The translations under genes were made by a program, and so were the position numbers. From contig JBHIEG010000016.1 in the NCBI GenBank assembly GCA_046760505.1, forward strand, positions 1-43,189: a stretch of DNA of 43,189 nt, written 5' to 3'. This document shows, in pieces, positions 18,382 to 38,340 of this stretch. The notes beneath the pieces were generated by a model. It saw only the letters and a program-made list of their open reading frames with translations, had not been told where the DNA came from and searched no databases. Origin of the DNA: Candidatus Hydrothermarchaeota archaeon (GTDB lineage: Archaea > CAYFZR01). Each line of letters opens with the position of its first letter. Position 1 is the first letter of the stretch.

Positions 18382-18391
18382 AGGTATTGAA

Positions 18392-19249: not shown

Positions 19250-19251
19250 AA

Positions 19252-20727: not shown

Positions 20728-20765
20728 CCAAAGATTTTTAATTGCTTTATAAAATATTCTCAAAC

Positions 20766-21701
20766 ATGCTTGCAATTCAAACAGAAGGTCTATACAAGGA
20801 ATTTGTCACCGGATTTCTCTCCAAAGACAGAAAAATAGCGATTAGGGATATATCACTGGAAATTGATGGAGATGAAATATTTGGCATTTTGGGTCCGAAT
20901 GGAGCAGGAAAAACAACCTTCATATCCATAATCTCCACGATACTTACACCAGATCGCGGATATGCAAAGGTGTATGGAATAGACGTTGTAAAAGACGCAA
21001 AAAAGGTTAGATCCATCATAAACATGTCCAGCGGATACCCGAATTTTCCTTGGGCCCTTACCGTATACGAAAATCTCAGGTATTTCGCTATGTTATACGG
21101 GCTACACGGTAGCGAGGGAAGGAGGAGAATAGAAGAATGCATAAAACTCTTGGAATTGGAAGATTCAAGAGATGTGAGATTTGATAGACTTTCTACAGGC
21201 ATGAAACAGCGTCTTTCAATAGCCAAATCGCTGTTGAACAATCCTAAACTGCTTTTACTCGACGAACCCACCCTAGGACTTGATCCAGATATAGCAATTA
21301 AAACCAGAAAAATGATCAAAAAAATTCACGAAGATGGAGTATCGATACTGCTTGCCACGCACAACATGAAAGAAGCAGAGGAATTGTGTAGGGAGATAGT
21401 ATTCATAAAAAATGGTACCATCAGGGCAATGGGTTCACCAAAAGAACTAAAAAAAATGATCAAAACCGGAGACCAAATAACCATTAAGTTTGATGGACCT
21501 TTCGATCCGAAGATTTTTCAGGAAATAGTGGGCATATACCATATCAGTCATTCGAAGAAATCACTGAAACTTGTCGTTGATGATGTTGAGACTGTTTTAA
21601 ATCAGATAATTTCCAAGTTAATTGAAAAAAACATTAAAATCAAGGATTTAAAGATTTCTGAACCAGATCTGGAGGATGTTTTTGTTGGACTACTTGAATA
21701 G
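20766..21701 (+). CDS. ABC transporter ATP-binding protein (DrrA/ABC-2 type)
   Basis: GPNGAGKTT, LSTGMKQR, LLLDEPT.GLDP, TH, LEDVF. Confidence 0.93.
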   Translation: MLAIQTEGLYKEFVTGFLSKDRKIAIRDISLEIDGDEIFGILGPNGAGKTTFISIISTILTPDRGYAKVYGIDVVKDAKKVRSIINMSSGYPNFPWALTVYENLRYFAMLYGLHGSEGRRRIEECIKLLELEDSRDVRFDRLSTGMKQRLSIAKSLLNNPKLLLLDEPTLGLDPDIAIKTRKMIKKIHEDGVSILLATHNMKEAEELCREIVFIKNGTIRAMGSPKELKKMIKTGDQITIKFDGPFDPKIFQEIVGIYHISHSKKSLKLVVDDVETVLNQIISKLIEKNIKIKDLKISEPDLEDVFVGLLE

Positions 21702-22482
21702 ATCTTTCACCCATTTCAACGCATTTCTGTACAAGAACTGGATTATGGCGAGAAGGAACTTTTTTACGATATTTGAAATGATGTTCTGGCCTTTCTATGC
21801 CCTGATATCTATAGGTTTAATGACGCTTTTCCTGGAGTTGTCCCCGGAGAAAGTTGCATTTGTATTGATAGGAACCATTGCGCTGAGTACAATTCAAATC
21901 TGTCAGATAGATATAGCATACGTTTTATTGCTAGACGTATGGAGTAAGAGCATAAAACAAACCCTGTTAGCACCTGTAGATGCTTTACATCTTTCCCTTG
22001 GCGGCTGGTTTGTCGGCGTCATTCGCGGATTATTGGTTTTTGTTTTTTTGAGCCTTTTCAGTTACTTTGCCTTTGGATTCGACTTTTTGAGACCGGGAAT
22101 ATTAAGATTGACCATATTTCTTTTTGGTTTATTCATTATGGGTGCTATTGTTGGCAATATTGTTTGCATACTCCTTCTCTTGTTTGGACAGCGTGCAGAA
22201 GTAGCGGCATGGTCCTTGGCTGGTTTGTTCATGCTAATATGCGGGATATATTATCCGTCTTCCATCCTTCCTGCTCCATTGTTCTACCTCTCCCAACTTA
22301 TTCCTCTTACTTATTTTCTCGACTATTTTAGGGTTTTTTATGGAATTGGAAAAGTTATTCCCTTTCATATCCTAAAAGGCTATTTTTTACTCGTGGTATA
22401 TTTTGCCGGGAGCATCCTGGGGTATGAACTTTGCTTGAGAAAGGCAAAAAGGTCAGGCATGCTTCTGAGATTGTCGGAGTGA
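21676..22482 (+). CDS. ABC-2 type transporter permease
   Basis: About six TM helices; GIYYP...LP and PLTY motifs; coupled to the ATPase gene. Confidence 0.9.
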   Translation: MFLLDYLNRSFTHFNAFLYKNWIMARRNFFTIFEMMFWPFYALISIGLMTLFLELSPEKVAFVLIGTIALSTIQICQIDIAYVLLLDVWSKSIKQTLLAPVDALHLSLGGWFVGVIRGLLVFVFLSLFSYFAFGFDFLRPGILRLTIFLFGLFIMGAIVGNIVCILLLLFGQRAEVAAWSLAGLFMLICGIYYPSSILPAPLFYLSQLIPLTYFLDYFRVFYGIGKVIPFHILKGYFLLVVYFAGSILGYELCLRKAKRSGMLLRLSE

Positions 22483-22595
22483 TTGAAATACGAAATTTTT
22501 CTCAAGCGATATTTCGAAATGCGAATCCAACCAATTCTCTCTTATATAATATAAGACGAATAATTAATGAACAAGCAAAGTGTGAGAGGGATGGG

Positions 22596-22925
22596 ATGAT
22601 CGAACTCTCAGATATACTTATAGCATCCAGATTTTCAGGCCTGCTGAAGGTTGTAAACAGCAAAGAAGTGGGCTATCTCGTAATAAGGGGAGACAAGGTG
22701 AAAGCAGCCTATGCCATTCTAGGAGGCGAACTTCACCTTGGCTACGATGCAATCGATATCATCATTTCAATGCTTAAGTGCGATGATGCTAAACTATCGC
22801 TCACACCTCTATCATGCGAAGAGGTGGGCAGATTTGAAGATATGTTCAAAGAAGGATCTTACGACCTGAACATCGAGGAAATTGCGAGCTGGAGAGAGGA
22901 ATTCTTTTCGAAAATAGGCATATAG
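22596..22925 (+). CDS. Hypothetical protein, DUF2226-like
   Basis: FSGLLKV...GYLVIRG..V.AAY.....G.DAI pattern; ATG 22596 after GAGGG. Confidence 0.5.
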   Translation: MIELSDILIASRFSGLLKVVNSKEVGYLVIRGDKVKAAYAILGGELHLGYDAIDIIISMLKCDDAKLSLTPLSCEEVGRFEDMFKEGSYDLNIEEIASWREEFFSKIGI

Positions 22926-22934
22926 TCTTCATCT

Positions 22935-24836
22935 CTACATTCCTAGTTTTTTTCGATTTTTCTCTATATAGCTTAAAATTGCGTCCACCGCTTTAATAGG
23001 ATCTTTTTCAACATTTAAAATTCCACCCGTTAACTCTTTACATTCTTCTGAAAGCAATTTAACAAGATTAGGTGCTCCTGTGACGGTTGGAACAGGATTG
23101 ACATATGTATAGAGACCTAATGCCAAAGCAAATACAGCATCAATGGTGGCTTTTTGCTCCATGTACTCTGGGGCTACCGCGGCTACTGGAAGATCTGGAA
23201 TAGGGACTTCCAGTGCTTTCGATAAAGCGAACAATAAGTCTGCAAGTCTTCCAGTATCAGTACAGGTACCATAGCTGAGAACTGGTGGAATTTTTAGGTT
23301 TTCACAGATTTCTTTAAGACCTTCGCCCGCTAATTCTTTAGCCTCTGGACTACACAGGCCTGCGACTTGCATTGCTCCATTCCCACATCCAAGCGAAAGA
23401 ACAAGAACATCTCGTTTGATAAGTTCCTTTGCCATTCTAATCGTATGCACGTCCTGACCTGAGTCTCTTAGAGTAGAGCATGAAACAAGACCTACAACTC
23501 CTTTTATTTTACCGTCTCTTATTGCATTTAAGAGAGGATCTATCGAGCCGCCTAGAACTTTTAGTATACTCTCTGTGGAGAATCCAACCAGTGCCTCTCT
23601 CTTCGGCAACTTGGTAACAGCCTTAACCGATTTTCTTCGCTCTTTGAAATTATCTATTGCCATGTTCAGAAGTTTTGAAGCCTGTTCCTCTGCTTTTTCA
23701 GGCTCATAATCAACTCTTTCTTCAATACCCTCAAATGAAACCAGTTCGCTTACTGGGAGGAGTTTAAACTTGTATCTCTCTGCATACAAAGGATCGATTT
23801 GCATTGAACAGTTCATATCGCATGCGAAAAGATCAACGCATCCGCTTGCCAGAACCGCTTCCTGAGCGATCCAGTTTCCCGTGAAACCATAGAATACATC
23901 ATCCATTTCCCACCTTTGGATCATTTCCTGACCTGTCTCTATGTTTGCAACAATTCTCAGACCTTTGGCTCCAGCAGCCTTTGCTATTTCCTGCCATTCT
24001 TTTCTTCTGGCTAGTTTTACCATTGCAAAGCCCAGAAAAGGTTCATGACCGTTTGGAAGTACGTTTACATATTCTGGATCAAGAACTCCCAAGTCAACAC
24101 GCATTGAATGGGGTCTCGGTATTCCAAAAAGAATATCTTGACAGTATTCATTGACTATCTGACTCTGATAAGCCATTGCTATGCCAAGGCGCATAGCCTT
24201 CAATGCCAAACTCATGTAGTTACCATCCACATTTGTAAGGCAAGAACTTGCTGAAAGAAGTATCTCGCCATAAATCCCTCCAGGGAAAATATTCAGTTTT
24301 TTCCAAACCTCTTTGCGTTCTTTTGGTGCTAATGCCTCTACAATAAGGCTTGGCTCATAGTATTTTCGGTTAAAATCTGATTCCACAAAATCACAAAGGC
24401 GAATGGCGATTTCCTTCACTGATCCAGATGTGTCTATACCCAGGCGCGCTGCGAAATCCTTCAGTTTATCATATTCTTTAATCTCGAAAGGTGTTTTACC
24501 CTTTGCAGTAGCTCGAAGGGTTCTTATGGTCTGATCTGTGTGGTAGAGATAGGTCGATGCGCCCATTATATTTCTTAGAAGCATCATTCTCATTGCCATG
24601 CCATCCGCGTTAATACCGCACACCCCTTTCTTGTCTTTATTAGCATCTGCACGGCATGGACCGTTGGAGCATAGGTCGCATCTCACTCCAGCCATGCAGA
24701 AAGGACATCTCCTATCAGGATCTCCTCCTAGACCTTGGGCTTCATACCGATCCCAGATATTGTCCATTTTGTCTTCTTTAATACGCTCATACACTCTTAG
24801 AACAGATTCATGGTAAGAAATTCTATCCTTTTCCAT
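22935..24836 (-). CDS. cooS: Ni-CODH/HCP superfamily protein, CooS-V-like (non-canonical C-cluster)
   Basis: CPFC (C-x2-C D site), C-x2-C-x4-C...C B cluster, NGHEP, NIETGQE instead of ICCTGNE, DMNC, VSC, LGCG, GTCTD, EQKA. Confidence 0.9.
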   Translation of the reverse strand: MEKDRISYHESVLRVYERIKEDKMDNIWDRYEAQGLGGDPDRRCPFCMAGVRCDLCSNGPCRADANKDKKGVCGINADGMAMRMMLLRNIMGASTYLYHTDQTIRTLRATAKGKTPFEIKEYDKLKDFAARLGIDTSGSVKEIAIRLCDFVESDFNRKYYEPSLIVEALAPKERKEVWKKLNIFPGGIYGEILLSASSCLTNVDGNYMSLALKAMRLGIAMAYQSQIVNEYCQDILFGIPRPHSMRVDLGVLDPEYVNVLPNGHEPFLGFAMVKLARRKEWQEIAKAAGAKGLRIVANIETGQEMIQRWEMDDVFYGFTGNWIAQEAVLASGCVDLFACDMNCSMQIDPLYAERYKFKLLPVSELVSFEGIEERVDYEPEKAEEQASKLLNMAIDNFKERRKSVKAVTKLPKREALVGFSTESILKVLGGSIDPLLNAIRDGKIKGVVGLVSCSTLRDSGQDVHTIRMAKELIKRDVLVLSLGCGNGAMQVAGLCSPEAKELAGEGLKEICENLKIPPVLSYGTCTDTGRLADLLFALSKALEVPIPDLPVAAVAPEYMEQKATIDAVFALALGLYTYVNPVPTVTGAPNLVKLLSEECKELTGGILNVEKDPIKAVDAILSYIEKNRKKLGM

Positions 24837-24959
24837 ATTTTAAACCCCCAGTCAATATTTCACAGTTTTGATAACTGCAGACTTAATTATTTCACTAAGG
24901 AAAAAATTGTCACAAACACAGATTAATACTTTCATTTGTTAATTACGGCTTTGGTGTCT

Positions 24960-25111
24960 ATGATGTCAAATATAACTTCGGTCGAAGAAGTTAGAGGGCA
25001 ATTTTCCATAACAATACCAAAGGCTATAGCTCTTGCATTGGATATTAAAAAAGGTTCTAAACTTGAAGGGAGTTAATACATGGAGAATTAGTAGTTAGGC
25101 TTTCTAAATAG
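24960..25111 (+). pseudogene. Frameshifted AbrB/SpoVT-family DNA-binding protein
   Basis: MMSNITSVEEVRGQFSITIPKAIALALDIKKGSKLE then premature stop at 25074-25076; adjacent frame continues ELIHGELVVRLSK*; one inserted base near 25068 restores KLE-x-ELIHGELVVR. Confidence 0.7.
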
Positions 25112-25177
25112 CCTCTTTGGAACACAAACTTTTGAAATTGACTACCAATTCAAAAAAATAAAATGAGTTAATTAATA

Positions 25178-25560
25178 CTAACATCGGATAATTGGCTCGA
25201 TCACAAAGTCCATTCTTAAAGCGCACCTTTCTCCCGATCTTATAGGTCTCTTAAATTCTATTCTTATTAAAGCATAGTCATCATAATTTTTAACCAATTT
25301 AATATCTACTTCATCTCCACAAGGGATGTATATATTTGTATAATCATCAAAAGAAGCATATTTACCTCGAATGTCATAATCAGCTCCTTCATATCCAAGA
25401 TTACTTCTGTTCTCTCTATCAAGAAAAGAATGATTATAAAAAACAAATTTTTCATGTTTAGTTTCTATATATCCATCTTTAAGAAAATATAAATCTTCAC
25501 CACAATGATTATATCAAACATTTTATTAGCGTCTTCTGCAATAAAAGCAAGAGTCGCCAA
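25178..25560 (-). pseudogene. Frameshifted AT-rich hypothetical gene remnant
   Basis: GAGGGG RBS and TTG (MATLAFIAEDANKMFD...) terminate early; an overlapping start-less frame of about 110 codons (…GEDLYFLKDGYIETKHEKF…ALRMDFVIEPIIRC*) runs to 25178. Confidence 0.5.
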
Positions 25561-25741
25561 TTTATTACCCCTCAAATTTCTCAGATTCTTAGATATTTAC
25601 TTTTTCTATATGAAAGTGCATCCAATAAAGCCCATTATGCCATAAGAATTAATGATGCTGGGCTTAACTTAAACTAGCTAAGAATTAAAATACAAAAATG
25701 AGTTAAAAATAAAGATAATTAAAAAATTGATGAAAAAATAC

Positions 25742-26923
25742 TTAACTTAGACCCATTGATTCTAAAACTATCTCAGATACATCTCTTACCTTTATATCTG
25801 AACCAGTCTTTTTAACTCCATCTGAGAGGTTCAACCTGCAGAAAGGGCAGCAACTTGCAATCAACTTTGCATCAACAGATATGGCGTCTTCTGCCCGAAT
25901 TTTTGCTAGTTCCATTGCCATTTCGCCGAATTGAGCCCTCATTCCTCCACCAGCGCCGCAGCATCTGGCAAGTTCTCTGTTCTTTTCCATTTCTACAAGT
26001 TCTAAACTTGGTATTGCTTTCAATATCTCTCTGGGCTCATCGTAAATTCCAAGATGCCTTGCCATATGACAGGGATCATGATATGTAACTTTCATGTCAA
26101 TTGGATCTTTAAGATTAACTCTTCCCTCCTCTATTAATTCTAAAATGTATTGCGATGTATGTTTTACTTCAACATCAAAATCTAGACCAAAATTATCTGC
26201 CCATCTGGGATAATCCAAGTAAAGAGTTCTGTAGCAGCCGGCGCAAGATGCAACTATTGTTTCTATTCCTCTATTTTTAAATTCATTTATGTTTTGGGTG
26301 ATTAAATCATATGCAATGTCGAGCTGACCCGTTCTTAGGAATGGAGATCCGCAGCACCATTCGTTTGCTGCCAAGAAATTAAAATCCATTCCAGCGGCAT
26401 GGAATACTTTTGCAGTGCTCTTTGCGAGATCAAGCATTCTATAAGAAGCGGTACAGCCAGCAAAATATAAAACACTGGAATTTTCATTTATCTTTATATT
26501 ATCAGGCATCCAGGCTCCTCTTTTGGCTGGATCTTCATTGTAAGGATTGTGTTTATCCTTTGCAGCGTCTTTTATTCTCAAATGATTTGGCATTGGTCCA
26601 AGTTTCAATCTCACCAGTTCAGATCTAAGTTCTTCCCAGAGTTCTATGGTAGGGATATTAACCTGACAGACTTCGTGACAGTATCCGCATCCGGTACACT
26701 GATATATCCGTTCAACCATTTTATCATCGAATTTAGCCTTTTTATTTAATACATTTTTAAGAAAGAACAATTTTCCCTTGGGGGTAGATGATTCCCACTT
26801 GTCCAGATCATACATGCAGCAAACAGGAACGCAGTACCCGCACTGTGCACAGGCGAAAGTTTCCCAAGACATCTCATCGGATAATTTTAATTTCAAACCT
26901 GCGTACCCTTTCATAGCATTCAT
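25742..26923 (-). CDS. HdrD/GlpC-like Fe-S oxidoreductase (2x[4Fe-4S] plus two CCG domains)
   Basis: CAQCGYCVPVC, CTGCGYCHEVC, YFAGC, WCCGS, SCAGC, YHDPCH, CCGAGGG, CCPFC. Confidence 0.9.
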   Translation of the reverse strand: MNAMKGYAGLKLKLSDEMSWETFACAQCGYCVPVCCMYDLDKWESSTPKGKLFFLKNVLNKKAKFDDKMVERIYQCTGCGYCHEVCQVNIPTIELWEELRSELVRLKLGPMPNHLRIKDAAKDKHNPYNEDPAKRGAWMPDNIKINENSSVLYFAGCTASYRMLDLAKSTAKVFHAAGMDFNFLAANEWCCGSPFLRTGQLDIAYDLITQNINEFKNRGIETIVASCAGCYRTLYLDYPRWADNFGLDFDVEVKHTSQYILELIEEGRVNLKDPIDMKVTYHDPCHMARHLGIYDEPREILKAIPSLELVEMEKNRELARCCGAGGGMRAQFGEMAMELAKIRAEDAISVDAKLIASCCPFCRLNLSDGVKKTGSDIKVRDVSEIVLESMGLS

Positions 26924-26972
26924 CTCTTTCTCTACCTTTCTATTTTATTTATTTAGTTTAGTGTTTATTTTA

Positions 26973-27344
26973 CTAGAACCACATTACTCCATCTACTTCG
27001 AGAGTAAGATCGTTTAAGGTAGCAGCGCCCACGATTATTGCTTCTTCAATGAAATCAGTATCTTTCATGTTTAGCAGATGTTTACTCTGCTCGCATACGT
27101 AAAATTTAACACCCATCTTTGCGGTTTGATCCATCACTTCTTTCAGAGTTGGAAAACTTCCAAGCTTTATCTTCTCTGCTTCTCCTTTTTTCAAAACAGT
27201 TAGACCCATACCCAAGAAATAAATTATTGGTTCCATGCCCATGGCCTTAGCGGTTTGTGCCAGTATAAACGGAGAATATAGTCTTTCTGGTGTGTTTACA
27301 CCGCTTGTTTGCACATACATTATCTTCTTTTTATGTTCAGGCAT
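26973..27344 (-). CDS. DsrE/DsrF-family protein (sulfur carrier / peroxiredoxin-like)
   Basis: PF..A..A.AMG.E..IYF...G...LKKG and GVKFYVCEQS with the conserved Cys. Confidence 0.85.
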   Translation of the reverse strand: MPEHKKKIMYVQTSGVNTPERLYSPFILAQTAKAMGMEPIIYFLGMGLTVLKKGEAEKIKLGSFPTLKEVMDQTAKMGVKFYVCEQSKHLLNMKDTDFIEEAIIVGAATLNDLTLEVDGVMWF

Positions 27345-27406
27345 AAATTATCACTCTCCTTTTTATTAAAAAATTTAAAAAATTGGAAACTGAGTTAAAT
27401 CTTTCT

Positions 27407-29785
27407 TCAGATTTTTTTGTTTCTTATCAATCTCTCTAGATTTGTTGGATCGAATCTTGGATCGTATGCTCTTACCTGTCCGCCTTTAATCTTTTTATCC
27501 TTAACCTCAAATCCATGTTCTTTCTCTAAAATTTCCAAAAGCTCGGATCTCCTTGCAATTGGCAGATCTGTCTCGCTTCTTACGAAAAGATACCAATCCT
27601 CTGGATACTCTCCAAAGTACTTCTTGCTCAGATCTAGGTAATGAGTTAATTTTATCGATCTTCCCGGAGCAGTATCGTTTGGTCTCATTACCATGCGAGC
27701 TGTTTGCACTATTGCCTCTTCTTTGGTCTCTGCTGTATAAATCAAATGCTCAGGTCCGGGCTCGAAGTAATGGAAGGAGCCATCTTTTGCATCTATGATC
27801 TGCCATTCCTCTTTTTTGTCCTTTCTTCCAAGATACATTCTCCTGTACTTAGATCCGTGAGGACCAACTATGACTGGAACTCCAAGTCTATTAAATCCAG
27901 TAGCGATAGCAGCTGCTTTCTGAGAGTAGGCTCCCCATGCGACTCCTACCGCTCCGATTCTATTCAGTATGTAATCCGCGATTTCTTCAAAGTTCGCCCT
28001 AAGATTTCTTTGAGCAAATATGTTTGCTACCTTTATGGCTGCTCCAGCAATATGAGAATTAGAGAGACAGGACCCAGTATTGCATACGTTTCCAGCATCA
28101 AATGCACCCGGAAATCTTTCCCAGACCGTTTTTCCTTCATCGTCCTTGTAGAATGATAGATCCATTGCTGCGCATCCTGATGATACAACTATGTATTTAC
28201 GGGAAGCAAATTCTACCACCATATCATAGAGATCCTTTCTTGATCCAGGATAGTTCGAACATCCTACGTATGCTATTATACCAGGTATAGTGCCTAAGAC
28301 AATTGGGGCTCCAACGTTTCTTATCTCAACGTCTGATATAGGACCTCTTCCAGATCTCACGAAAGATTTCTCTGTTTTAGCATTAGCATGCCAGGCTCCC
28401 TCAATAAGGTTTAGCGGAACTATTCCCTGAGGACATTCAAAAGCACATTTATTGCATCCTATACATCTTTCATGGAGATCAACTAGTTTTGATAGATCTC
28501 CTTTCGAAGCAGCCTCATTTGCTTCATGTATAGGCAAATTGCTTGGACATACTCGCCTACATCTTTCGCATTGAGTACAGGTCGATGCTATTTCCTTGAT
28601 TCTTTCTACGTCAGGAATAACCTTGAATTTCTTTCTCTTTGGAGCAATTGCTTTAGCAACCTTTACTGCTACTTCTCCAACTTTATCTGGATCAGTTATT
28701 AATACTCCGGGTTCTTTTCCTTCAACTAAATCTCTTACTATTTCATCTACTGGGTCATTCGTTCTGTTAGGCAATCCATAGCAGATCTGGTTTGTTGTTG
28801 CAATGACAGGCGCCTTTATTTTTTCTGCCTCCTCCATTACAACGGTTCTTACGCACTGCTCGTCAACAATGATAACATCAGGAACTCCGGTTCTTATGAA
28901 CTTCTGCTGATTTGTTATTGGCCCTATTACCTTTGTCTTCTCATAATACCTTGCCATGTCGTGAGCAGTGCAGCATATTGCACAGAGTTCTATCTCATCT
29001 TCCAATCCATTGTCAATTAGATAGTCAATGATTCCAATTCCTGGCAGTACGTTGTGACCTATTCCAAGTATTACTGGCTTCTCCTTATCAACCGTGCCCA
29101 TTCCTATCTCTACCAAAGGCGCATCGGGATCTGCTTTTGGAAAGCCAAAAGTGGATATCTGCGCTATATCTCCAACTTCCATGGTTAGCAAATCCAACAT
29201 TCCAGCATGAAGTGCCTTAGATTCAAAATCTAAGTAAGATCCTTCCTGTCCTGTGTGAACCGCGGATAAACCGTATGTAATCTGCTTCTCCACATAATCT
29301 AAAACCTCTTCAAGATCTCCAAGAGTGGATGGTTTCTTTCCAACTATCAGTCTCGTTAACGGAGCCTCAACATTTATAGCATCTTTACCGATGTCTATCG
29401 GATAATCCGGACCAAATTTTTTTATGAGTCTCTCCAACATGTCTCTTGAATGCGTGTTGTGAGCAGCTGCACCAATCAAACAGGCTGCAAGAACTATTCT
29501 GGCAGTTTGACTTGTTATATCAAGACCGCATGCTCCCCTTCTTCCTTGAGAGAGATCACATTTTCCCATTGTACAAAGATCACAGAAATCAGTATAGGGT
29601 GCATAGAATGGTTTGTATCTTTTTAGCAATTTAAAGTCCCATTCTCGCAAATCCAAGATATCTGGCTTTGGTGTTGGACCCAATGGCTCTTCCCATGTTT
29701 CCTCTTCTTCTATAATTTTGCCTATGTTGATCGAAATGTTTTCAAGACCCTCTATCTTGAAAACTTTAGTTTTGTTATTTATCAT
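27407..29785 (-). CDS. cdhA: Archaeal CO dehydrogenase alpha subunit (Cdh type), stand-alone
   Basis: EPLGPTP.P...LREWD, HTGQEG, GHNV, ICCTAHD, DEQC, E/F clusters CTQCERCRRVCP and CIGCNKCAFECP, VGCSNYP, SGC, GSCLSNSH, SQKA. Confidence 0.95.
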   Translation of the reverse strand: MINNKTKVFKIEGLENISINIGKIIEEEETWEEPLGPTPKPDILDLREWDFKLLKRYKPFYAPYTDFCDLCTMGKCDLSQGRRGACGLDITSQTARIVLAACLIGAAAHNTHSRDMLERLIKKFGPDYPIDIGKDAINVEAPLTRLIVGKKPSTLGDLEEVLDYVEKQITYGLSAVHTGQEGSYLDFESKALHAGMLDLLTMEVGDIAQISTFGFPKADPDAPLVEIGMGTVDKEKPVILGIGHNVLPGIGIIDYLIDNGLEDEIELCAICCTAHDMARYYEKTKVIGPITNQQKFIRTGVPDVIIVDEQCVRTVVMEEAEKIKAPVIATTNQICYGLPNRTNDPVDEIVRDLVEGKEPGVLITDPDKVGEVAVKVAKAIAPKRKKFKVIPDVERIKEIASTCTQCERCRRVCPSNLPIHEANEAASKGDLSKLVDLHERCIGCNKCAFECPQGIVPLNLIEGAWHANAKTEKSFVRSGRGPISDVEIRNVGAPIVLGTIPGIIAYVGCSNYPGSRKDLYDMVVEFASRKYIVVSSGCAAMDLSFYKDDEGKTVWERFPGAFDAGNVCNTGSCLSNSHIAGAAIKVANIFAQRNLRANFEEIADYILNRIGAVGVAWGAYSQKAAAIATGFNRLGVPVIVGPHGSKYRRMYLGRKDKKEEWQIIDAKDGSFHYFEPGPEHLIYTAETKEEAIVQTARMVMRPNDTAPGRSIKLTHYLDLSKKYFGEYPEDWYLFVRSETDLPIARRSELLEILEKEHGFEVKDKKIKGGQVRAYDPRFDPTNLERLIRNKKI

Positions 29786-29817
29786 TTCAATCCTCCAATA
29801 TAATTCAATTATACATA

Positions 29818-29900
29818 CAATTAGTTATGTATTATCCGAAATATAAAATCTTATGGTATGAAATTCGTCAAAAATTTAATAAATTCTATTGAAAATCGTA
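29818..29900 (-). promoter_or_regulatory. cdhA-dsrE-hdrD promoter: two Ptr2-like boxes, TATA, conserved downstream element
   Basis: Minus strand: TACGATTTTC (29900-29891), TGACGAATTTCATAC (29870-29856), TTTTATAT (29848-29841), TTTCGGATAATA-CA-TAACTAATTG (29841-29818); GGAGG RBS downstream. Confidence 0.7.
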
Positions 29901-30029
29901 AGAACCAATCAATGAAATCAAAAAAATTTTGGCTGATATTTTTTGTCAAAAATTATATATATCTTTATTAGTATTAAATATAACGAAAATAAAAAAAAAT
30001 TATTCAATAATCGCACAAAAAGTGATGCT

Positions 30030-30461
30030 ATGGTTGATCAAAAAGACATGAAAATAATCGAAATCTTGAGAGAGAATTCAAGAAAATCATTTACCGAGAT
30101 AGCAGAAGAATTGGGAGTGAGTGAGTCCACGATTAGAAAAAGAGTTAAGGCCTTGGAAGATGAGGGAATCATTAAAAAGTATACAATAATCGTAGATCCT
30201 GCAAAAATAGGTTACAGAACAGTGGCATTGGTAGGTTTAGACGTTGAACCATCTCATTTTTTAGAGGCAGCGGAGAAGATGACCGAATTCGAGGAGGTAA
30301 AGTGCGTTTCCACATCCACGGGTGACCACATGATAATGACCGAAATATGGGTTAAAGATGGCAAAGAGCTCACAAAGCTGATATCTGAAAAAATTGGAAA
30401 AATAGAGGGCGTAAGTAGAATTTGTCCCGCCATAATATTGGAAAAATTAAAAGAGGTTTAA
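30030..30461 (+). CDS. lrpA: Lrp/AsnC regulator, Ptr2/LrpA orthologue
   Basis: [45 protein letters not shown]...ICPAIILE, the Ptr2/LrpA subfamily signature. Confidence 0.9.
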
Positions 30462-30480
30462 AATAAGTAATTTATCACAT

Positions 30481-31308
30481 TTACTCGGGAACCGCTAACG
30501 GCTTTTCAACTTTGAGTTCCTCTTTCGGAATGGCTTCTCCCTTGACGATATCGTCTATCCTTTCTCTGAAGTCCGGATAGGCAAGTGCCATCAGAGTGGG
30601 CAGCGATATTATCCTTTTGGAAATCTCCACCTCTTTTAAACCCTCTCCAATGTGCAGTTCACAAAACGGACAGGATGTTATTACGAGATCAGCCTGCGTC
30701 TCTTCTATGAAATTGAGTTTTCTTTCCCTGATTTTTTTTGCAAGATCTATTTGAGAGGCTCTAACACCTCCTCCTGCTCCGCAGCAGGCATTAGCCTCCT
30801 CCAATTCAATGTATTCTATACCCGGTATCTGTTCGAGAATCTCTTTGAAACCTTTAAAACAATCAACACCCATGCCTCTTATAAGATGGCACGGAAAGTG
30901 AGCGGTTACCTTAGCATTGATAGGACGAATATTATCTTCTTTAAAGAGCCTTCCCTCCTCGGCTAACTTCATGAAGATCTCCATTATGTGAATCACCTTA
31001 ATTCCACGTTTCTCTGCCTCTTCCGATTTCAGAGTAGATCCGCATCCGGGACATGCGGTAACAATAACGTTTCTGCCTGTTTTTTCCACCTCTCTGAGGT
31101 TGTACAGCAATTGTCTTTTTGCAAGATCCTCGTCCCCAGCCCTGAAGATCGGAGAGCCGCAGCACTGTTCTTTATCTAAAACAATATAGTCGATTCCAAA
31201 TTTATCTAGCAGGAAACGCAGGGCAAACCTTATGATATGCATCCTTCTCGAGGTTATGCACCCCTCAAAAAGGACGACTTTATCAGGTATAGATTCTAAT
31301 TTTTTCAT
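30481..31308 (-). CDS. Stand-alone CCG-domain (HdrB-like) Fe-S protein
   Basis: LFEGC, QCCGSP, ACPGC, HFPCHL, ACCGAGGG, SCPFC; no ferredoxin domain. Confidence 0.88.
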   Translation of the reverse strand: MKKLESIPDKVVLFEGCITSRRMHIIRFALRFLLDKFGIDYIVLDKEQCCGSPIFRAGDEDLAKRQLLYNLREVEKTGRNVIVTACPGCGSTLKSEEAEKRGIKVIHIMEIFMKLAEEGRLFKEDNIRPINAKVTAHFPCHLIRGMGVDCFKGFKEILEQIPGIEYIELEEANACCGAGGGVRASQIDLAKKIRERKLNFIEETQADLVITSCPFCELHIGEGLKEVEISKRIISLPTLMALAYPDFRERIDDIVKGEAIPKEELKVEKPLAVPE

Positions 31309-31319
31309 ATTTTTTGCCT

Positions 31320-31402
31320 CAATTAGTTAAATATTATCCGAAACTTTTATACTTTTAGTATGTATATCGTTATAAATGCAGAGAAACTGTGCGAAAATCG
31401 TA
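31320..31402 (-). promoter_or_regulatory. Promoter of the CCG gene, same architecture as the cdhA promoter
   Basis: Minus strand: TACGATTTTCGC (31402-31391), ACGATATACATAC (31370-31358), TATAAAA (31351-31345), TTTCGGATAATA-TT-TAACTAATTG (31343-31320); the conserved blocks sit at offset +1502 from the cdhA copy. Confidence 0.7.
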
Positions 31403-31448
31403 TTTTAATTATTTGATTTTCTAAAAAAATAAAAGGGAAAAACTTGAA

Positions 31449-33428
31449 TCAGATTCCTAGTGCCTTCCTTTTCTCCTCTATGTGATTTTCTATTATGTTT
31501 GCTGCTTCCCTTGGATCCACTTCCACGGCGAACTTACCTCCAAACAGGCTTTCAGCATCTACTGCGAGCAGTTTCGACACGAGTTCGCTTCCCGCTACAG
31601 GAGGGACCACACCGAGATGTACCAGCAAACCCAATGCCACTGCGCCTGTACCTATGGCTGCTGCCTTTTCCGTAGCCCACTCTGGCGCTGATGCGGCTAC
31701 AGGAAGGTTGCTCAAATCAACATCTAACGCATCTGCTAGGGCTCCGAGCAGTATGAATATCCTTGAATTATCCACGCAGGATCCCATGTGCAAAACTGGC
31801 GGAATGCCTAAAGCCCCGCATATAGCCCTTAAGCCTTCTCCTGCATGTTCTCTGGCTTCAGGTAGCAAAAGTCCCGCTTTCGCTAGGGCATGTCCTGAAC
31901 AGCCTGTGGTCACAACCAGTATATCTCTTTTTATGAGTTCCCTGGCTAAATTTACATGGTTGTAGTCGTGCGTAACCTTTGGATTGTTACAACCGACGAT
32001 ACCAACCGCTCCCTTTATTTTTCCCTCCTTAATCGCATCTAGCAAGGGAGCGAGATCTCCATTTAGCAGGTCCAGTATCGCCTCTACGGAAACGCCGGCT
32101 ATCAGTTTTGATTTCTCATCTATCAATTTTACCTCGTTAGATCTATTTTTGTAATTGTTTATTGCCTCTTTAACTATTTTTTCAGCGACCTCATCTGCCC
32201 TTTCCTCTGAGAATTCAATGTGAATTACGTTTTCATTCTGAGGCATCTTTGCCTCATTCTGAGTTGTTATAAGCCTTGTGTGATAGTGAGAAGCAATATT
32301 CGCCAGACTCGGCATAATGCATTGTACATCCACCGTGAATGCATCCACAACTCCGCTTAAAATAGCCAGTTCCTGCTGTAATGTATTGCCAATCTGGGGA
32401 ATTCCATGTCTTGATAATACCTCGTTTCCGGTGCAGCATATTCCCGCTACCGTAATACCCTCTGCTCCAATCGCCCTAGCCTCTTCCTCCAGCCTCTCGG
32501 ACCACTCCACCACCTTTTCAGATAAAAGCGGAACATGTCCATGGACGATTATGTTTACATTCTCTTCCCTTAGCACGCCGAAATTAGTCTCCGTTTCCAC
32601 TATGGATGGAGTTCCGAAAAGAACGTCCTGGAGCAATGTGGATATCAGGAGCGAGTAAAAATCTGCAAGCCCGCATCTAACCGCATGCAGAATTATATTA
32701 ACTGGATCAGCATCGACTCCCTGCGTAGTCCTATGCATCGCCTCTGCTATCTCTTTATAACCGCTCCTCGGAAATACTCCCAGTTCCTTTAATTTTTCCA
32801 CCCTCTTTTTTGGCGTAAAACTCTCTGCGAATACCATGTAGTCCCTTTCTAATGAACCTACAAAATCTTTCCATGCCTCCAATCCCACTTCTACGGCTAT
32901 TTGTTCTATCTCCTTTCCTTCTGTTTCTATTCCGATTTTTTTTGCTATTTGGAGCAGTTTTTCTTTGTCTGTAATTTCATACGGTGCTTCTTTCTTTCCA
33001 GTCTTCATCAGAGTCTCTGCGACATGAACTCCATGCTCTACATGGGCAGCGGTACCTCCTGCAATGAATCTAAGCAAAGATCTCGCCACCATTAGATCCC
33101 TATCCGCTCCGCATATTCCCTCAGTGGCATTAAACCTGATTCTGTATAATCTGGGCAGGAATGCCGGATCCTCAGGCAATACCCTGCATGGACCGTTTGC
33201 GCAGTTTCTGCAGCAGACTCCAAGAGATCCGAATGGACACCTCACCGCCTCTATTACAGGAAGTACGGCCTCAAATTTCTCAACTCTATCGAATACCGTG
33301 GGAATTTTTTTCGTTCGAGCATATTCCAGCATCTCTTTCGTTGCTGGATCTGCTGTAACACCGTATGTTTTCTTGAACTCTTCTTCTTTCTTCTTTTGCT
33401 GTCTCCATAAAATCTCAGAAATTTCCAT
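31449..33428 (-). CDS. cooS: Anaerobic Ni-CO dehydrogenase catalytic subunit (canonical ligands)
   Basis: CPFGSLGVCCRNCANGPC...GICG, AAHVEH, HGH.P, GICCTGNE, DVQC, VGCNN, TGC, MGSCVDN, EKA. Confidence 0.95.
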   Translation of the reverse strand: MEISEILWRQQKKKEEEFKKTYGVTADPATKEMLEYARTKKIPTVFDRVEKFEAVLPVIEAVRCPFGSLGVCCRNCANGPCRVLPEDPAFLPRLYRIRFNATEGICGADRDLMVARSLLRFIAGGTAAHVEHGVHVAETLMKTGKKEAPYEITDKEKLLQIAKKIGIETEGKEIEQIAVEVGLEAWKDFVGSLERDYMVFAESFTPKKRVEKLKELGVFPRSGYKEIAEAMHRTTQGVDADPVNIILHAVRCGLADFYSLLISTLLQDVLFGTPSIVETETNFGVLREENVNIIVHGHVPLLSEKVVEWSERLEEEARAIGAEGITVAGICCTGNEVLSRHGIPQIGNTLQQELAILSGVVDAFTVDVQCIMPSLANIASHYHTRLITTQNEAKMPQNENVIHIEFSEERADEVAEKIVKEAINNYKNRSNEVKLIDEKSKLIAGVSVEAILDLLNGDLAPLLDAIKEGKIKGAVGIVGCNNPKVTHDYNHVNLARELIKRDILVVTTGCSGHALAKAGLLLPEAREHAGEGLRAICGALGIPPVLHMGSCVDNSRIFILLGALADALDVDLSNLPVAASAPEWATEKAAAIGTGAVALGLLVHLGVVPPVAGSELVSKLLAVDAESLFGGKFAVEVDPREAANIIENHIEEKRKALGI

Positions 33429-33490
33429 TTTTCCACCCAAGAAATATAAGTCAATTATATATATTATTTTTTCACAAAGGTACTGAAAAA

Positions 33491-33958
33491 TTAATCTAAC
33501 TTGCCGTAAACCCTTCTAAAACATCTATTATACCATCTTTTCCCCTTTCTAAGCATTTCAGCATCTCTCTTCTTTTTTTCAACAATATGAGACATCCTCT
33601 CTGAAATACCGAATAGATCCGGTATGTACTCTACCTCCAGCACGGAGTCTATTCCAAGACCTGTTTTTGCCTTGAACATGTCTACAAAAAGAGGATTTGA
33701 ACTCCAGAACACACAGTGAGATCTCTTTATGATTATTTCCCCGTACTTTGCATGATATCTTATCTCATCTATCCTATTCTCTCTGAGGTGGCTCAATAAT
33801 GTGTTCAATTCAAACTCAAAACATTTTTCCTCGAAATTCCTGGTTATCTCTTCATTTCCTTTCTTGTATATGATCCTGTCTGTTTTAGGAGATTTCTCAG
33901 AGAGTTTTTTTACGTCTTCATCCTCTAGTTTTATCTTAAATATGGGTAAATAATCCAT
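33491..33958 (-). CDS. Hypothetical protein, third gene of the thiolase operon
   Basis: ATG 2 nt after the HMGCS-fusion stop; 155 aa; no family recognised. Confidence 0.65.
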   Translation of the reverse strand: MDYLPIFKIKLEDEDVKKLSEKSPKTDRIIYKKGNEEITRNFEEKCFEFELNTLLSHLRENRIDEIRYHAKYGEIIIKRSHCVFWSSNPLFVDMFKAKTGLGIDSVLEVEYIPDLFGISERMSHIVEKKKRDAEMLRKGKRWYNRCFRRVYGKLD

Positions 33959-33960
33959 CT

Positions 33961-35400
33961 CTATCCGTTCTTGGTTTTTCTGTATGTATGGTAGTTTACG
34001 TATATCTTTCTTTTCAGCTGTTCCTGTACTGTTATACCCTCTTTCCATAAGATAGGCTCTTCAGTTCTCCACAGGAAGGCATCGGCCCCTGCGCCAGAGC
34101 CAAATGCTACGTGCAGGATTAGTTCATTGTCCCTGGCATGATCAAAAATGTTTGCGAGTCCGATTAAGGTTGAAGCGGAGTACGCATTCCCTATCCAGTC
34201 AGCAACGAATCCCAGTTTATACTGTTCCCATGTAAAACCAAGTCTCTGAGCCGCTTTCCAGGGGAATTTTCCGTTTGGCTGATGCAAAACAACGTGATCT
34301 ATTTCATGAGGTTCTATGCCAGTTCTTTCCATCAGGTTAATTGCTGCGGCCTGCGTATGCTTAAAGTAGGCTGGATCTCCTGTGAAACCGCCTCCGTGTC
34401 TCGGAAATGGAGAGCCTTCCCTTCTCCAGAAATCCGGAATGTCCGTTGTATAAGGTTCATATGCTTCCAGACTTGCTATCACATCATATTTACCGAATAT
34501 AAATGCGGCTGCACCGCATCCCACCGTGTTGTCTAGAACGTCTCCCTCTTCTGCCTGAGAATTATCTGCTCCCACCACCATTGAGTAGTCGCATTCAAAG
34601 TATCCATTCTCTACCACGCTCAGTGCATAGATAAATCCTCCAGTCGCTGCCTTACAGGCGCATTCCATGTCGTGGGCTTCTACTCTTGGAGTGGCTCCAA
34701 TGGCCTCTGCTACGGTGATTGCACTCGGTTTTACCGCGTAAGGAGGGCTTTCTGAACCAAATCTAATGGATCCAATCTCACTTCCATCTATACAGGCATA
34801 TTTTAAGGCATTTTTTGCTGCATCTACTCCTATCGTGGTGGTATCCTGATCCGGAGCCAGTACAGCCTTTTCTTTAAAACCGGTTTGATTAATAAGAATC
34901 TTTGGATCTTTCTTCATCTCTTTGGCCATTTCCTCCATTTTAATCCTGTATTTCGGTATATGAACCCCATATCCAACTATGCCTGCCCTATCAAACTTTT
35001 TAACTGGATTTTTTTTCTTGAATGATTTACTGCCCTGCTTGGGTCTAAATGCGAGACCGTATTTGATCACACCCTCCTTGGTTTCTCCAAGCCTTCTGAA
35101 CGTTGGCTCCAGTTCCATGCCTATCTCTGGCTCGCGATCCATATCTGTCAGATAGGTAGAAACTTTGGCTCCATCGATTTCGACTATTGCGCAATAATAT
35201 AAGAATCCATTTTCCACCTTTTTGCTGTAAGAATATAAACTCGCATCCTTCCACATCAGGGATTCGTAGATTACTTCTCCTTCCCTTCCCCTGCCTGTAT
35301 CTATGTACCTCGGCGGGATGCTTAATCCTCTAGATTCATCCTTGCTCGCAATGAGCCTGTAGTACTCAGGTATATTTCTCCAAGATTTGGGCAAACTCAT
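33961..35400 (-). CDS. Fusion of N-terminal DUF35 (ChsH2-like OB fold) and hydroxymethylglutaryl-CoA synthase
   Basis: aa 1-~122: WR.IP.YYRL, PPR, YSYS, LTD, IGM..EPTFRRL, G.IKYG..FRP; then GIVGYG..IP.YRI, GSESPPYAVKP, ACKA, DFWRR, HQPNGKFP, IGN.YS, FGSGAG.D. Confidence 0.9.
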   Translation of the reverse strand: MSLPKSWRNIPEYYRLIASKDESRGLSIPPRYIDTGRGREGEVIYESLMWKDASLYSYSKKVENGFLYYCAIVEIDGAKVSTYLTDMDREPEIGMELEPTFRRLGETKEGVIKYGLAFRPKQGSKSFKKKNPVKKFDRAGIVGYGVHIPKYRIKMEEMAKEMKKDPKILINQTGFKEKAVLAPDQDTTTIGVDAAKNALKYACIDGSEIGSIRFGSESPPYAVKPSAITVAEAIGATPRVEAHDMECACKAATGGFIYALSVVENGYFECDYSMVVGADNSQAEEGDVLDNTVGCGAAAFIFGKYDVIASLEAYEPYTTDIPDFWRREGSPFPRHGGGFTGDPAYFKHTQAAAINLMERTGIEPHEIDHVVLHQPNGKFPWKAAQRLGFTWEQYKLGFVADWIGNAYSASTLIGLANIFDHARDNELILHVAFGSGAGADAFLWRTEEPILWKEGITVQEQLKRKIYVNYHTYRKTKNG

Positions 35401-36966: not shown

Positions 36967-36990
36967 TTTGTCGAATATTTTTTCGACAAT
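36967..36990. promoter_or_regulatory. Palindromic site TTTGTC-N12-GACAAT, copy 2 (or hdrB terminator hairpin)
   Basis: TTGTCGAA-TATTTT-TTCGACAA perfect 8-bp arms directly after the hdrB stop. Confidence 0.45.
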
Positions 36991-37859: not shown

Positions 37860-37863
37860 GTTA

Positions 37864-38340
37864 TCACCTTGCCAGCGAAAAAATTTTGTATTTTTCTATG
37901 AGTTTTCTGAACGCTTCAAGTTCTTCTTTACTCGCAGATACATCAAGGGGCTCCTTTCTCAGTCCAAGCATTATCCTGTACTTCACTGTATCGGGAGACA
38001 GTGGAAATACGGTTCCGGTATCGTACAGATTTTTTATCGCTGTTTTGTGGATTTTTGGATATTTTTCCCTTTTAAATGCTTCATTTCTGAATTCCAACAC
38101 TGCATCCACCGTATTAACACCCTTCGGGCATCTCTCAGTGCATGTGTAGCAGGTTGTGCAGAACCACAGTTCCTCTAAATGAAGGATGTCCTCACCCTCA
38201 TAGGCACGGTATATCATGTCTCTTATTCTCATGCGCGAGATGTTTCCAAGGGGGCAACTCGCGGTACATTTGCCGCACTGGATGCATTTCCATATGCTTG
38301 TATCCTCCAGTATTTCAACGATCTCGGGAGGAATTTTCAA
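37864..38340 (-). CDS. hdrC: Heterodisulfide reductase subunit C
   Basis: CIQCGKCTASCP and LWFCTTCYTCTERCP; directly upstream of hdrB. Confidence 0.92.
   Translation of the reverse strand: MKIPPEIVEILEDTSIWKCIQCGKCTASCPLGNISRMRIRDMIYRAYEGEDILHLEELWFCTTCYTCTERCPKGVNTVDAVLEFRNEAFKREKYPKIHKTAIKNLYDTGTVFPLSPDTVKYRIMLGLRKEPLDVSASKEELEAFRKLIEKYKIFSLAR

Follow-up and report, generated by a model that had tools for sequence, protein, structure and literature searches.

A second ACDS alpha-subunit gene with a probable CCG-protein companion, followed by dsrE- and hdrD-like genes, in a Candidatus Hydrothermarchaeota archaeon

We analysed a 43,189-nucleotide stretch of DNA, hereafter the window, from a Candidatus Hydrothermarchaeota archaeon (CAYFZR01; GCA_046760505.1, contig JBHIEG010000016.1). 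Within it we examined cdhA2, a gene for a carbon monoxide dehydrogenase (CODH) alpha subunit of the ACDS (acetyl-CoA decarbonylase/synthase) type, together with a DsrE-family gene and an HdrD-like gene that follow it. The genome, labelled G000, is a 2.17-Mb assembly in 142 contigs with an estimated completeness of 100% and an estimated contamination of 5.67%. The collections searched held two genomes of its phylum-level lineage, G000 and that of a sister species (G001); all other relatives share only the domain with them. An earlier, sequence-only reading of this DNA had taken the three genes for an operon around an orphan CODH subunit. The open reading frames (ORFs), their order on the minus strand and the 62- and 49-bp spacers between them are as that reading had stated:

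27407–29785, minus strand: cdhA2, 792 amino acids, a second, lineage-specific copy of the ACDS alpha-subunit gene with no adjoining cdhB
27345–27406, minus strand: cdhA–dsrE spacer of 62 bp, read directly; it holds two T6 runs and a ribosome-binding site of the GGAG type
26973–27344, minus strand: DsrE-family gene, 123 amino acids, a candidate persulfide carrier; the Cys84 codon is at 27095–27093
26924–26972, minus strand: dsrE–hdrD-like spacer of 49 bp with no T-run and a purine-rich ribosome-binding site, read directly
25742–26923, minus strand: gene for an HdrD-like Fe–S protein, 393 amino acids, an HdrC-like 2x[4Fe-4S] part fused to an HdrB-like 2xCCG part; soluble
25690–25741, minus strand: T-rich terminator-like stretch after the stop codon of the HdrD-like gene, read directly

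The product of cdhA2 scored 1,194.4 bits against TIGR00314 (cut-off 781.3) and aligned with positions 5–784 of the 784 in the model. Wherever an alignment of 12 archaeal CdhA sequences has an invariant Cys or His column, CdhA2 has that residue, including cysteines at 68, 71, 76, 86, 271, 272, 311, 403–413, 441–451, 509, 538 and 573 and H244; these residues would be divided among the B, C, D, E and F clusters. A profile search of the genome returned two cdhA matches above the cut-off and one cdhB match, the latter on contig C6. There, a canonical cdhA is followed by cdhB and then by ORFs of 481, 254, 432 and 466 amino acids, whose sizes and order fit a cdhC–accessory–cdhD–cdhE operon; the family scans covered cdhA and cdhB, and the 481-amino-acid ORF matches genes in the cdhC position in other archaea. 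CdhA2 is 82% identical at the amino acid level to this canonical CdhA, and the top CdhA match from another genus, in a search of 41 genomes, shares 59% identity with CdhA2. The label "orphan" thus holds only locally, as the gene is a paralogue of a canonical cdhA that is accompanied by cdhB and cdhC elsewhere in the genome. The observation that no epsilon-subunit gene lies nearby was borne out: the window contains no cdhB, and the sole match in the genome is the one on C6. Nor is cdhA2 encoded together with genes for acetyl-CoA synthase (ACS) or the corrinoid iron–sulfur protein; at other archaeal cdhA loci, cdhB was directly downstream in 7 of 10.

Both cdhA copies are also present in G001. 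Downstream of the canonical one, cdhB and cdhC again follow, and its identity to the copy on C6 is 91.5%; the orphan one is 93% identical to cdhA2 of the window. Comparison of the two orphan copies gave 0.038 for the proportion of non-synonymous differences (pN) versus 0.67 for that of synonymous differences (pS). As both species hold both copies, with the ligands kept and a low pN/pS, cdhA2 is functional and was duplicated before the species split. Together, these comparisons establish cdhA2, at the level of the genes, as a second alpha-subunit gene that was duplicated inside the lineage, has kept its cluster ligands and evolves under purifying selection in each of the two known species.

The divergence between the two G000 copies is distributed unevenly along the gene:

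27407–27865, minus strand: region of the CdhA C-terminal domain, codons 641–792, homogenised with canonical cdhA (30288–30746 of C6)
27630–27847, minus strand: 218-nt exact repeat (gene nucleotides 1939–2156) shared with canonical cdhA
Residues 1–40 of CdhA2: 59% identity to the canonical copy
Residues 41–100: 75% identity
Residues 101–390: 78% identity
Residues 391–480, the E/F-cluster domain: 76% identity
Residues 481–640: 88% identity
Residues 641–788: 99% identity (147/148)

Between codons 641 and 710, the copies differ by two synonymous and no non-synonymous changes. Codons 711–792 show ∼26 synonymous differences and five residue changes, four of which are the last four residues. In the sister lineage, residues 641–672 of the orphan copy are identical to its own canonical copy at 32 of 32 positions and to the G000 orphan at 28 of 32. 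The segment identities, the 218-nt repeat and the sister-lineage pattern thus reveal repeated gene conversion in both species, by which, as judged from these alignments, the C-terminal domain of cdhA2 has been held identical to that of the canonical copy. The parts available to us of a preprint (PMC13370988) describe the CdhA C-terminal domain as the main docking surface for CdhC, the ACS. A domain kept identical and with such a docking role suggests that the two copies share an ACS partner and may differ in redox partner or regulation, and the homogenisation would argue for ongoing compatibility with ACDS, not for independence from it. The N-terminus and the E/F domain are among the most diverged parts of CdhA2, and residues 101–390 (78%) are about as diverged as the E/F domain (76%).

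The repeat also bears on whether dsrE is truly joined to cdhA2. We therefore inspected Logan contigs from four runs of one study of a hydrothermal vent metagenome, possibly the source sample. In three of the four runs, 25600–27659 is covered by a single contig, which takes in the HdrD-like gene and dsrE as well as the 62-bp spacer and ∼250 nt at the end of cdhA; a genuine cdhA 3′ end thus precedes dsrE. However, the contigs of all four runs break at 27630–28043, with depth up ∼1.5–2 fold at the repeat, and the G001 contig and a metagenome contig (L117) also stop inside the orphan cdhA, at residues 629 and 672, respectively. A metagenome scan with CdhA yielded three loci, all of the sister lineage, none of which extends beyond the repeat of the orphan copy. 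These shared breaks, along with the 5.67% contamination estimated for the bin, are what might be expected of an assembly artefact in which the contig crosses the 218-nt repeat wrongly and dsrE is in fact preceded by the canonical cdhA or by a cdhA 3′ fragment. We regard such an artefact as very improbable. The genome holds only two cdhA 5′ parts, and the canonical one is linked to cdhB in three independent sister-lineage contigs, which assigns the dsrE-proximal tail to cdhA2 by elimination. This tail is distinct and under purifying selection, and its ∼26 synonymous versus five amino acid changes mark it as a functional gene end of its own. The tail on C6 matches the end of the G001 canonical copy at three of the four final residues. 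In general, a 218-nt repeat is also short enough to be bridged by read pairs.

Upstream of cdhA2 lies a second group of genes and promoter elements, flanked by a CooS-type CODH gene; another such gene lies on the far side of the HdrD-like gene:

29786–29942, between divergent genes: intergenic region holding promoter block copy 1, with a 23-nt core at 29818–29840 on the minus strand
29943–30461, plus strand: Lrp/AsnC-type regulator with HTH_24 and AsnC_trans_reg domains; 185.5 bits against the LrpA model, cut-off 250
30481–31308, minus strand: CCG275, HdrB-like, 275 amino acids, with two CCG domains only (121.7 bits) and no ferredoxin domain
31320–31342, minus strand: second copy of the 23-nt core; CCG275 starts 12 nt downstream of it
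31449–33440, minus strand: CooS2, a CooS-type CODH of 663 amino acids (TIGR01702, 702.6 bits versus 478), directly upstream of the CCG275 promoter
22935–24836, minus strand: CooS1, a CooS-type CODH of 633 amino acids (TIGR01702, 764 bits), ∼900 bp downstream of the HdrD-like gene

A divergent lrpA had been named as the neighbour of cdhA2. An Lrp/AsnC-type gene is indeed divergent from it; LrpA is its best NCBIfam hit, at 185.5 bits, below the cut-off of 250. The order CCG275–lrp–cdhA2 is syntenic in G001 and on L117, and in G001 the regulator and CCG275 are 91% and 84% identical to their window counterparts. In a repeat search, cdhA2 and CCG275 proved to share a direct repeat of 58 nt in their upstream regions. 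Its 23-nt core, TTCGGATAATA-NN-TAACTAATTG, occurs at only these two places in the 2.17-Mb genome when up to four mismatches are allowed, and it is kept at both corresponding sites of G001 with one and two mismatches. With up to five mismatches, the core was absent from the canonical cdh, G001 CooS2, G001 dsrE and CCG275-paralogue loci (six scanned). Alignment of the four upstream regions defined a common block of ∼80 nt (29818–29900 and 31320–31400 in the window) that includes the invariant ACGATTTTC. The 23-nt motif and the surrounding block likely form an operator or promoter that is shared on either side of the Lrp-type gene, the product of which probably co-regulates cdhA2 and CCG275.

In G001, a paralogue of CCG275 (72–74% identical) is directly preceded by a gene for a 180-amino-acid 2x[4Fe-4S] protein, whereas CCG275 itself has no such partner gene. 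An HdrC-like protein of the same genome (window positions 37864–38340) cross-matches positions 393–472 of the cdhA model, which is the E/F-cluster region. By analogy, a pairing of the CdhA2 E/F domain with CCG275 that resembles HdrC–HdrB would be worth testing. Homologues of CCG275 in another phylum are at most 44% identical and mostly correspond to the C-terminal half of frames of ∼520 amino acids; a CODH gene or dsrE was present at 0 of 30 of their loci, which has no bearing on the CdhA2–CCG275 pairing. The HdrC-like gene in the window is itself part of an HdrC-like and HdrB-like gene pair (36990–38340, minus strand), each member slightly short of its equivalog cut-off (128/160 and 326/345 bits); the pair lacks a neighbouring hdrA and adjoins a cluster for an archaeal-type thiolase and HMG-CoA synthase.

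The CooS genes are placed less constantly than this core. In G001, CooS2 stands alone on contig C14 between plus-strand genes, and it is absent from the orthologous place on L117, which has ∼580 bp instead. For CooS1, no DNA match was found in G001. A G001 contig (C83) is collinear with window positions 12000–22923 and ends there; its final ∼110 nt have no match in the window.

Downstream of cdhA2, the three genes share a strand and are separated by short spacers, as expected of an operon. By rough arithmetic, random placement would put a CCG-type gene within 2 kb of cdhA with a chance of ∼1% and a DsrE-family gene with a chance of ∼0.4%, an estimate that concerns a single instance among genomes whose gene order is non-random. 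In archaea, oligo-T runs are termination signals and A/T-rich boxes can serve as TATA boxes. With two T6 runs in the 62-bp spacer, read-through from cdhA2 and a separate start are both possible, and the 49-bp spacer would fit a joint transcript of dsrE and the HdrD-like gene. A bacterial-model scan of 25500–30100 gave 10 promoter-like signals versus 13.9 expected and four terminator-like signals versus 2.4 expected, which is uninformative for an archaeal host, and an Rfam scan of 22000–34000 gave no family match. Beyond the HdrD-like gene, ∼900 bp contain only small ORFs, none of at least 80 amino acids. One of these (24936–25076, plus strand, 46 amino acids) has a weak MazE/AbrB-type match (23.3 bits versus a cut-off of 24.7), and G001 contig C60 contains a match to 24922–25102 at 73% similarity.

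This layout, with ribosome-binding sites in both spacers and a T-rich stop only past the third gene, favours the mechanism that the sequence-only reading had put forward, namely a dedicated operon apart from ACDS in which electrons from CO would pass through the CdhA E and F clusters to the HdrD-like protein and on to a persulfide or disulfide at Cys84 of DsrE, much as in DsrK and DsrC. All catalytic cysteines are present in the three proteins, and the divergence of the N-terminus and the E/F domain of CdhA2 from the canonical copy would also fit such a chain. Conversely, the two T6 runs between cdhA and dsrE may terminate transcription, and the homogenised C-terminal domain points to ACDS partners that are still shared.

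Over its full length, CdhA2 can be aligned with 8riu_A (E 3e-301) and with 3cf4_A, from the ACDS alpha2–epsilon2 complex. According to the parts of the source available to us, the F420-reducing alpha2–epsilon2–zeta2 CODH of Ca. Ethanoperedens thermophilum (PDB 8RIU) has an added Fe–S/flavin zeta subunit at the alpha/epsilon junction (PMC11493965). This enzyme shows that a subunit with an N-terminal 2x[4Fe-4S] part can dock on CdhA and take electrons from it (PMC11493965), a precedent for extra redox subunits that favours the CO-to-persulfide chain. The same precedent also counts against the CO-to-persulfide chain, as a position at the alpha/epsilon junction requires epsilon; moreover, as described in those parts, zeta has an F420-reductase domain and not CCG domains, and the alpha and epsilon genes lie in the region of the other ACDS subunits. 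Unlike the complexes in 3CF4 and 8RIU, cdhA2 has no local epsilon gene.

If the three genes formed a dedicated system, their arrangement might be expected to recur. We examined 57 HdrD-like loci from public genomes (up to 6 kb), 30 DsrE loci (within 1.5 kb) and 10 other archaeal cdhA loci, and the cdhA–dsrE–CCG order was found at none of them. Neither cdhA nor dsrE occurred at the 57 HdrD-like loci, no cdhA, cooS or CCG gene at the 30 DsrE loci, and neither dsrE nor an HdrD-like gene at the 10 cdhA loci. The sister species differs as well. The G001 orthologue of dsrE (87% identical at the amino acid and 85% at the nucleotide level) is on another contig, where the similarity to the window extends no further than 26 nt upstream of the ATG. 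Its neighbours are an Hsp20-like gene and a divergent HdrD-like gene, 37% identical to that of the window and ∼650 bp away with a 115-amino-acid gene between, so that in G001, too, dsrE is near an HdrD-like gene. An orthologue of the window HdrD-like gene was not found in G001, the best match (73%) being a paralogue linked to a FAD oxidase. The G000 counterpart of the G001 dsrE locus (C10) carries other genes and no dsrE remnant. A literature search on CdhA with DsrE, on DsrE/IscS/IscU/archaea and on CODH/HdrD/persulfide returned no title or abstract that describes such a cluster. In the parts available to us of two surveys of CODH contexts, clade A contexts consist mostly of Wood–Ljungdahl genes, CooC and Fe–S proteins (PMC13056359, PMC6344411); "DsrE" is absent from the main texts of both, and their supplements may list rare DsrE or COG0247 neighbours.

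The sequence-only reading had described the third gene as encoding 2x[4Fe-4S] and 2xCCG, and Pfam matches to a Fer4 dicluster and two CCG stretches (129.9 bits) confirm this. With its HdrC-like dicluster and double CCG part, the protein shares the common plan of HdrD/HdrBC, TfrB, DsrK and the EtfD module, and its 18 cysteines, eight of the ferredoxin type and 10 of the CCG type in two complete motifs, are invariant in 40 of 40 homologues. Unlike HdrD, TfrB and DsrK, it stayed below every named NCBIfam cut-off (TfrB 248.9/385, LdhH 178.6/800, GlpC 115.2/278, DsrK 81.9/400 and HdrB 60/345 bits). Two further attributes of HdrD, HdrE as its cytochrome b partner and a host that produces CoM-S-S-CoB, are missing: no cytochrome b gene lies beside the HdrD-like gene, and neither McrA nor DsrC had a match in the G000 genome, the estimated completeness of which is 100%. 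The absence of McrA rules out a role as a methanogen-type CoM-S-S-CoB reductase, and that of DsrC rules out a Dsr-type role.

The relatives of the HdrD-like protein point in another direction. An AlphaFold model (mean predicted local distance difference test score of 91.5) matched best, by fold, EtfD of M. smegmatis (template-modelling score 0.80), followed by LutA and HdrB. Profile matches were to the same EtfD entry, HdrB (1e-26) and HdrC (3e-8). We take the EtfD entry to be an electron-transfer protein to menaquinone, not a disulfide reductase. Because this fold is common to heterodisulfide reductases and electron-transfer modules, CCG domains alone are no proof of disulfide chemistry. The closest paralogue in the genome (75%, contig C23) is the last gene after a cytochrome b in two parts and a FAD-linked oxidase, and a FAD-linked oxidase is beside the HdrD-like homologue at 24 of the 57 public-genome loci. 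The series of cytochrome b N-terminal part, C-terminal part, FAD-linked oxidase and HdrD-like gene is found at 5717–9497 of C23 (L093) and at 3393–7149 of L010, from another archaeon; by analogy, it looks like a membrane-bound dehydrogenase of the 2-hydroxyacid type with an EtfD-like electron path. On these comparisons, the HdrD-like protein need not be a DsrK-like disulfide reductase, and the frequent FAD-oxidase contexts and the EtfD fold also lower the standing of the CO-to-persulfide chain.

The genome nevertheless has CCG-type genes at 14 places (tblastn) and DsrE-family genes at five, three by tblastn and two as further ORFs on C9 by Pfam. Many CCG proteins without McrA or DsrC imply a need for thiol or persulfide substrates beyond CoM-S-S-CoB and DsrC, which speaks for a chain with DsrE as the substrate. 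The missing textbook substrates may thus keep the idea of CO-to-thiol electron flow alive in a general form. The lineage as a whole carries ACDS, two CooS genes, HdrB/C-like genes and many CCG proteins.

The DsrE-family protein scored 64.2 bits against PF02635 (cut-off 22.7). Its sole cysteine, C84 in FYVCEQS, is the conserved Cys that had been pointed out and is invariant in 40 of 40 aligned homologues. As in DsrEFH, TusBCD and DsrE3-like proteins, a DsrE fold is combined with one conserved cysteine at the usual place. Unlike DsrEFH, TusBCD and sHdr systems, the gene has no dsrF, dsrH, tusA, lbpA, dsrC or sHdr genes beside it in family scans of the window, and against the DsrE2 model it scored 41.7 bits (cut-off 210). 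It belongs to a separate family of proteins of ∼120 amino acids. Among 3,814 homologues, the best 120 (query excluded) are 67–89% identical, with Thermoplasmata, Methanoperedens, Actinobacteria and Dehalococcoidia among their named sources. The closest solved structure, 3mc3_A, is an uncharacterised DsrE/DsrF-like family protein, and our literature search found no published function for the family.

Gene neighbourhoods link this family to sulfur supply. In G000, a paralogue on C9 (83% identical) overlaps the start of a gene for a class-V aminotransferase (cysteine desulfurase type), and a NifU_N/IscU gene comes next; this dsrE–iscS–iscU arrangement recurs in G001. In another phylum, the family was found in 133 of 301 sampled genomes. 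At the best 30 loci there, iscS is directly downstream of dsrE in 18, mostly followed by iscU; six of the 12 remaining loci were inspected, of which four adjoin feoB and one a ThiI-like gene. Representatives of this conserved DsrE gene, upstream of iscS–iscU or, in other genomes, beside feoB, were seen at 56042–57979 of C9 (10043–11980 of L092) and in G001, G013, G036 and L127–L154. Sulfur transfer from IscS to TusA/TusD is a parallel to the link between dsrE and a cysteine desulfurase. The protein is thus tied to Fe–S and sulfur supply and is not a Dsr or sHdr component, unlike the DsrE proteins of sHdr/Dsr pathways to which the sequence-only reading had pointed, and the CO-to-persulfide chain loses ground with it. 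A persulfide on Cys84 is a reasonable guess by analogy; the role of this residue as a persulfide carrier is presumed from what is generally known of the DsrE fold family. Elsewhere on C9 (49757–55326; 3758–9327 of L092) we observed a sulfur-trafficking cluster that encodes a DsrE_2-type protein, a DsrE/DsrH-like protein, a TusA–DsrE fusion, a thioredoxin–DsrH fusion, a TrmB-type regulator and a 614-amino-acid fusion of glutaredoxin, the catalytic domain of ferredoxin–thioredoxin reductase and DUF3422.

Neighbours such as iscS–iscU (18 of 30 loci) and feoB (four of six others inspected) raise the idea of cofactor maturation or repair, in which DsrE and the HdrD-like reductase would release sulfide for the Fe–S and Ni–Fe–S clusters of the three CODHs encoded within 11 kb. 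Three CODH-family genes do lie in 22935–33440, and the cleavage of a persulfide takes two electrons, which an HdrC/B-type protein could supply. We consider this explanation improbable, however, since the literature searched, including the main texts of the CODH context papers, offered no precedent, no cooC, cooT or cooJ gene is beside the cdhA2, dsrE and HdrD-like genes, and the sister species retains cdhA2 without the dsrE–hdrD arrangement.

Alternatively, rearrangements in a variable region might have placed two duplicates behind cdhA2 without any functional link. The region does vary between the species, with CooS2 moved, CooS1 absent in G001, dsrE moved and an orthologue of the HdrD-like gene absent, and CCG genes are very numerous. 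CdhA2 itself might then be a CO sensor or regulator. To our knowledge, lone CdhA copies are known but poorly understood, and the only one studied is CdhA3. In the parts of the sources available to us, CdhA3 of Methanosarcina acetivorans is a lone gene outside carbon metabolism and is suggested to be a CO sensor (PMC13056359, PMC4652020). Like it, cdhA2 is an extra clade-A CODH alpha gene without cdhB or ACS neighbours, and in both cases a complete cdh operon is present elsewhere in the genome. Unlike CdhA3 as described, cdhA2 is an 82% copy with a gene-converted C-terminal domain, flanked by the Lrp-type and CCG275 genes and followed by dsrE and the HdrD-like gene. On these similarities, cdhA2 would belong with the known lone CdhA isoforms, as a variant. 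Mere adjacency is rather unlikely, given that three redox-related genes are tightly spaced in the same orientation, that both duplicates are intact with all conserved residues kept, and that the 11 kb bring together a sulfur carrier with two CCG and three CODH genes, which looks less like a random draw than like the accretion of related functions.

Overall, these data suggest a locus that is a young, species-specific patchwork of duplicates around a conserved core, to which we assign a probability of roughly one half. In this patchwork, CdhA2 would be a separately regulated alternative CODH alpha subunit with a CCG-only companion; it would be able to dock CdhC and would probably borrow CdhB, both encoded elsewhere. 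Because the N-terminus and the E/F domain rank among the regions of CdhA2 that have diverged most, its electron-exit side could serve the CCG-type Fe–S reductases encoded beside it. The dsrE–hdrD pair would be an add-on, with the DsrE-like gene a duplicate of a persulfide carrier linked to Fe–S biogenesis and the HdrD-like gene a duplicate of the Fe–S/CCG subunit of a cytochrome b/FAD-oxidase complex. Most likely, the two would form a unit in which a carrier of cysteine persulfide or disulfide is paired with a soluble reductase of the HdrC/B type, which would unload or regenerate that carrier. Transcripts of this unit would arise through read-through out of cdhA2, at a weak start within the 62-bp spacer, or in both ways. 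That electrons from CO reach DsrE by way of CdhA2 and the HdrD-like protein is a possibility within this framework. The locus does not appear to be a conserved orphan CODH–DsrE–HdrD system, and the dedicated CO-to-persulfide operon of the sequence-only reading, with its cluster at none of the other loci examined and with dsrE elsewhere and the HdrD-like orthologue missing in the sister species, is unlikely. A further variant, in which CdhA2 has been recruited as the electron input of a CO-driven thiol or persulfide reductase, its E/F domain acting as HdrC for CCG275 and also serving the HdrD-like protein and DsrE while its C-terminal domain still docks ACS, is doubtful to a similar degree.

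Several points weigh against the patchwork reading. The "conserved core" and the "species-specific add-on" each come from one comparison, that of G000 with G001, and the G001 contig ends inside cdhA2 (residue 629), which cuts off the genes downstream. That dsrE is elsewhere in G001 would therefore follow from one close dsrE copy with a different upstream sequence, and the proximity of that copy to an HdrD-like gene is a weak hint that DsrE and HdrD-like proteins belong together, as the sequence-only reading had it. The main gap is an HdrD-like homologue, 82% identical, on a 4,652-bp contig of another record, which could carry the same cluster. The link between the 5′ part of cdhA2 and its tail comes from the genome assembly and elimination, not from reads. 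As to the core itself, the shared promoter block could be a relic of duplication instead of an operator, and gene conversion can proceed without selection, so that an identical C-terminal domain would be no proof of CdhC docking.

Other genes of the window lie apart from these subjects. At 18392–20727 (plus strand), a thioredoxin-domain protein fused to ATC-hydrolase/V4R-like domains (285 amino acids) is followed by a KaiC-type ATPase of 491 amino acids with a GvpD basic-region-2 domain. A minimal nucleotidyltransferase is encoded at 40486–40764 (minus strand) and a nucleotidyltransferase and HEPN pair at 41041–41975 (plus strand), toxin–antitoxin-like pairs of a kind usual in archaea. An Mrr-like nuclease lies at 39444–40091.

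For the biology of this lineage, the weight falls on the core. A promoter block common only to cdhA2 and an HdrB-like gene points to a pairing of CODH and CCG proteins in both known species, and concerted evolution limited to the CdhC-docking domain tells which partner both CdhA copies must still fit. The specific cdhA–dsrE–hdrD chain stands on the gene order of one genome, and the widespread, highly conserved DsrE family with its iscS–iscU or feoB neighbours provides a testable handle of its own. Should CdhA2 indeed have been recruited to drive thiol or persulfide reduction, the result would be a CO:disulfide or CO:persulfide oxidoreductase built from ACDS and Hdr parts. If CO oxidation couples to a CCG-type reductase, this would be a new electron outlet for archaeal CODH besides ferredoxin and F420.

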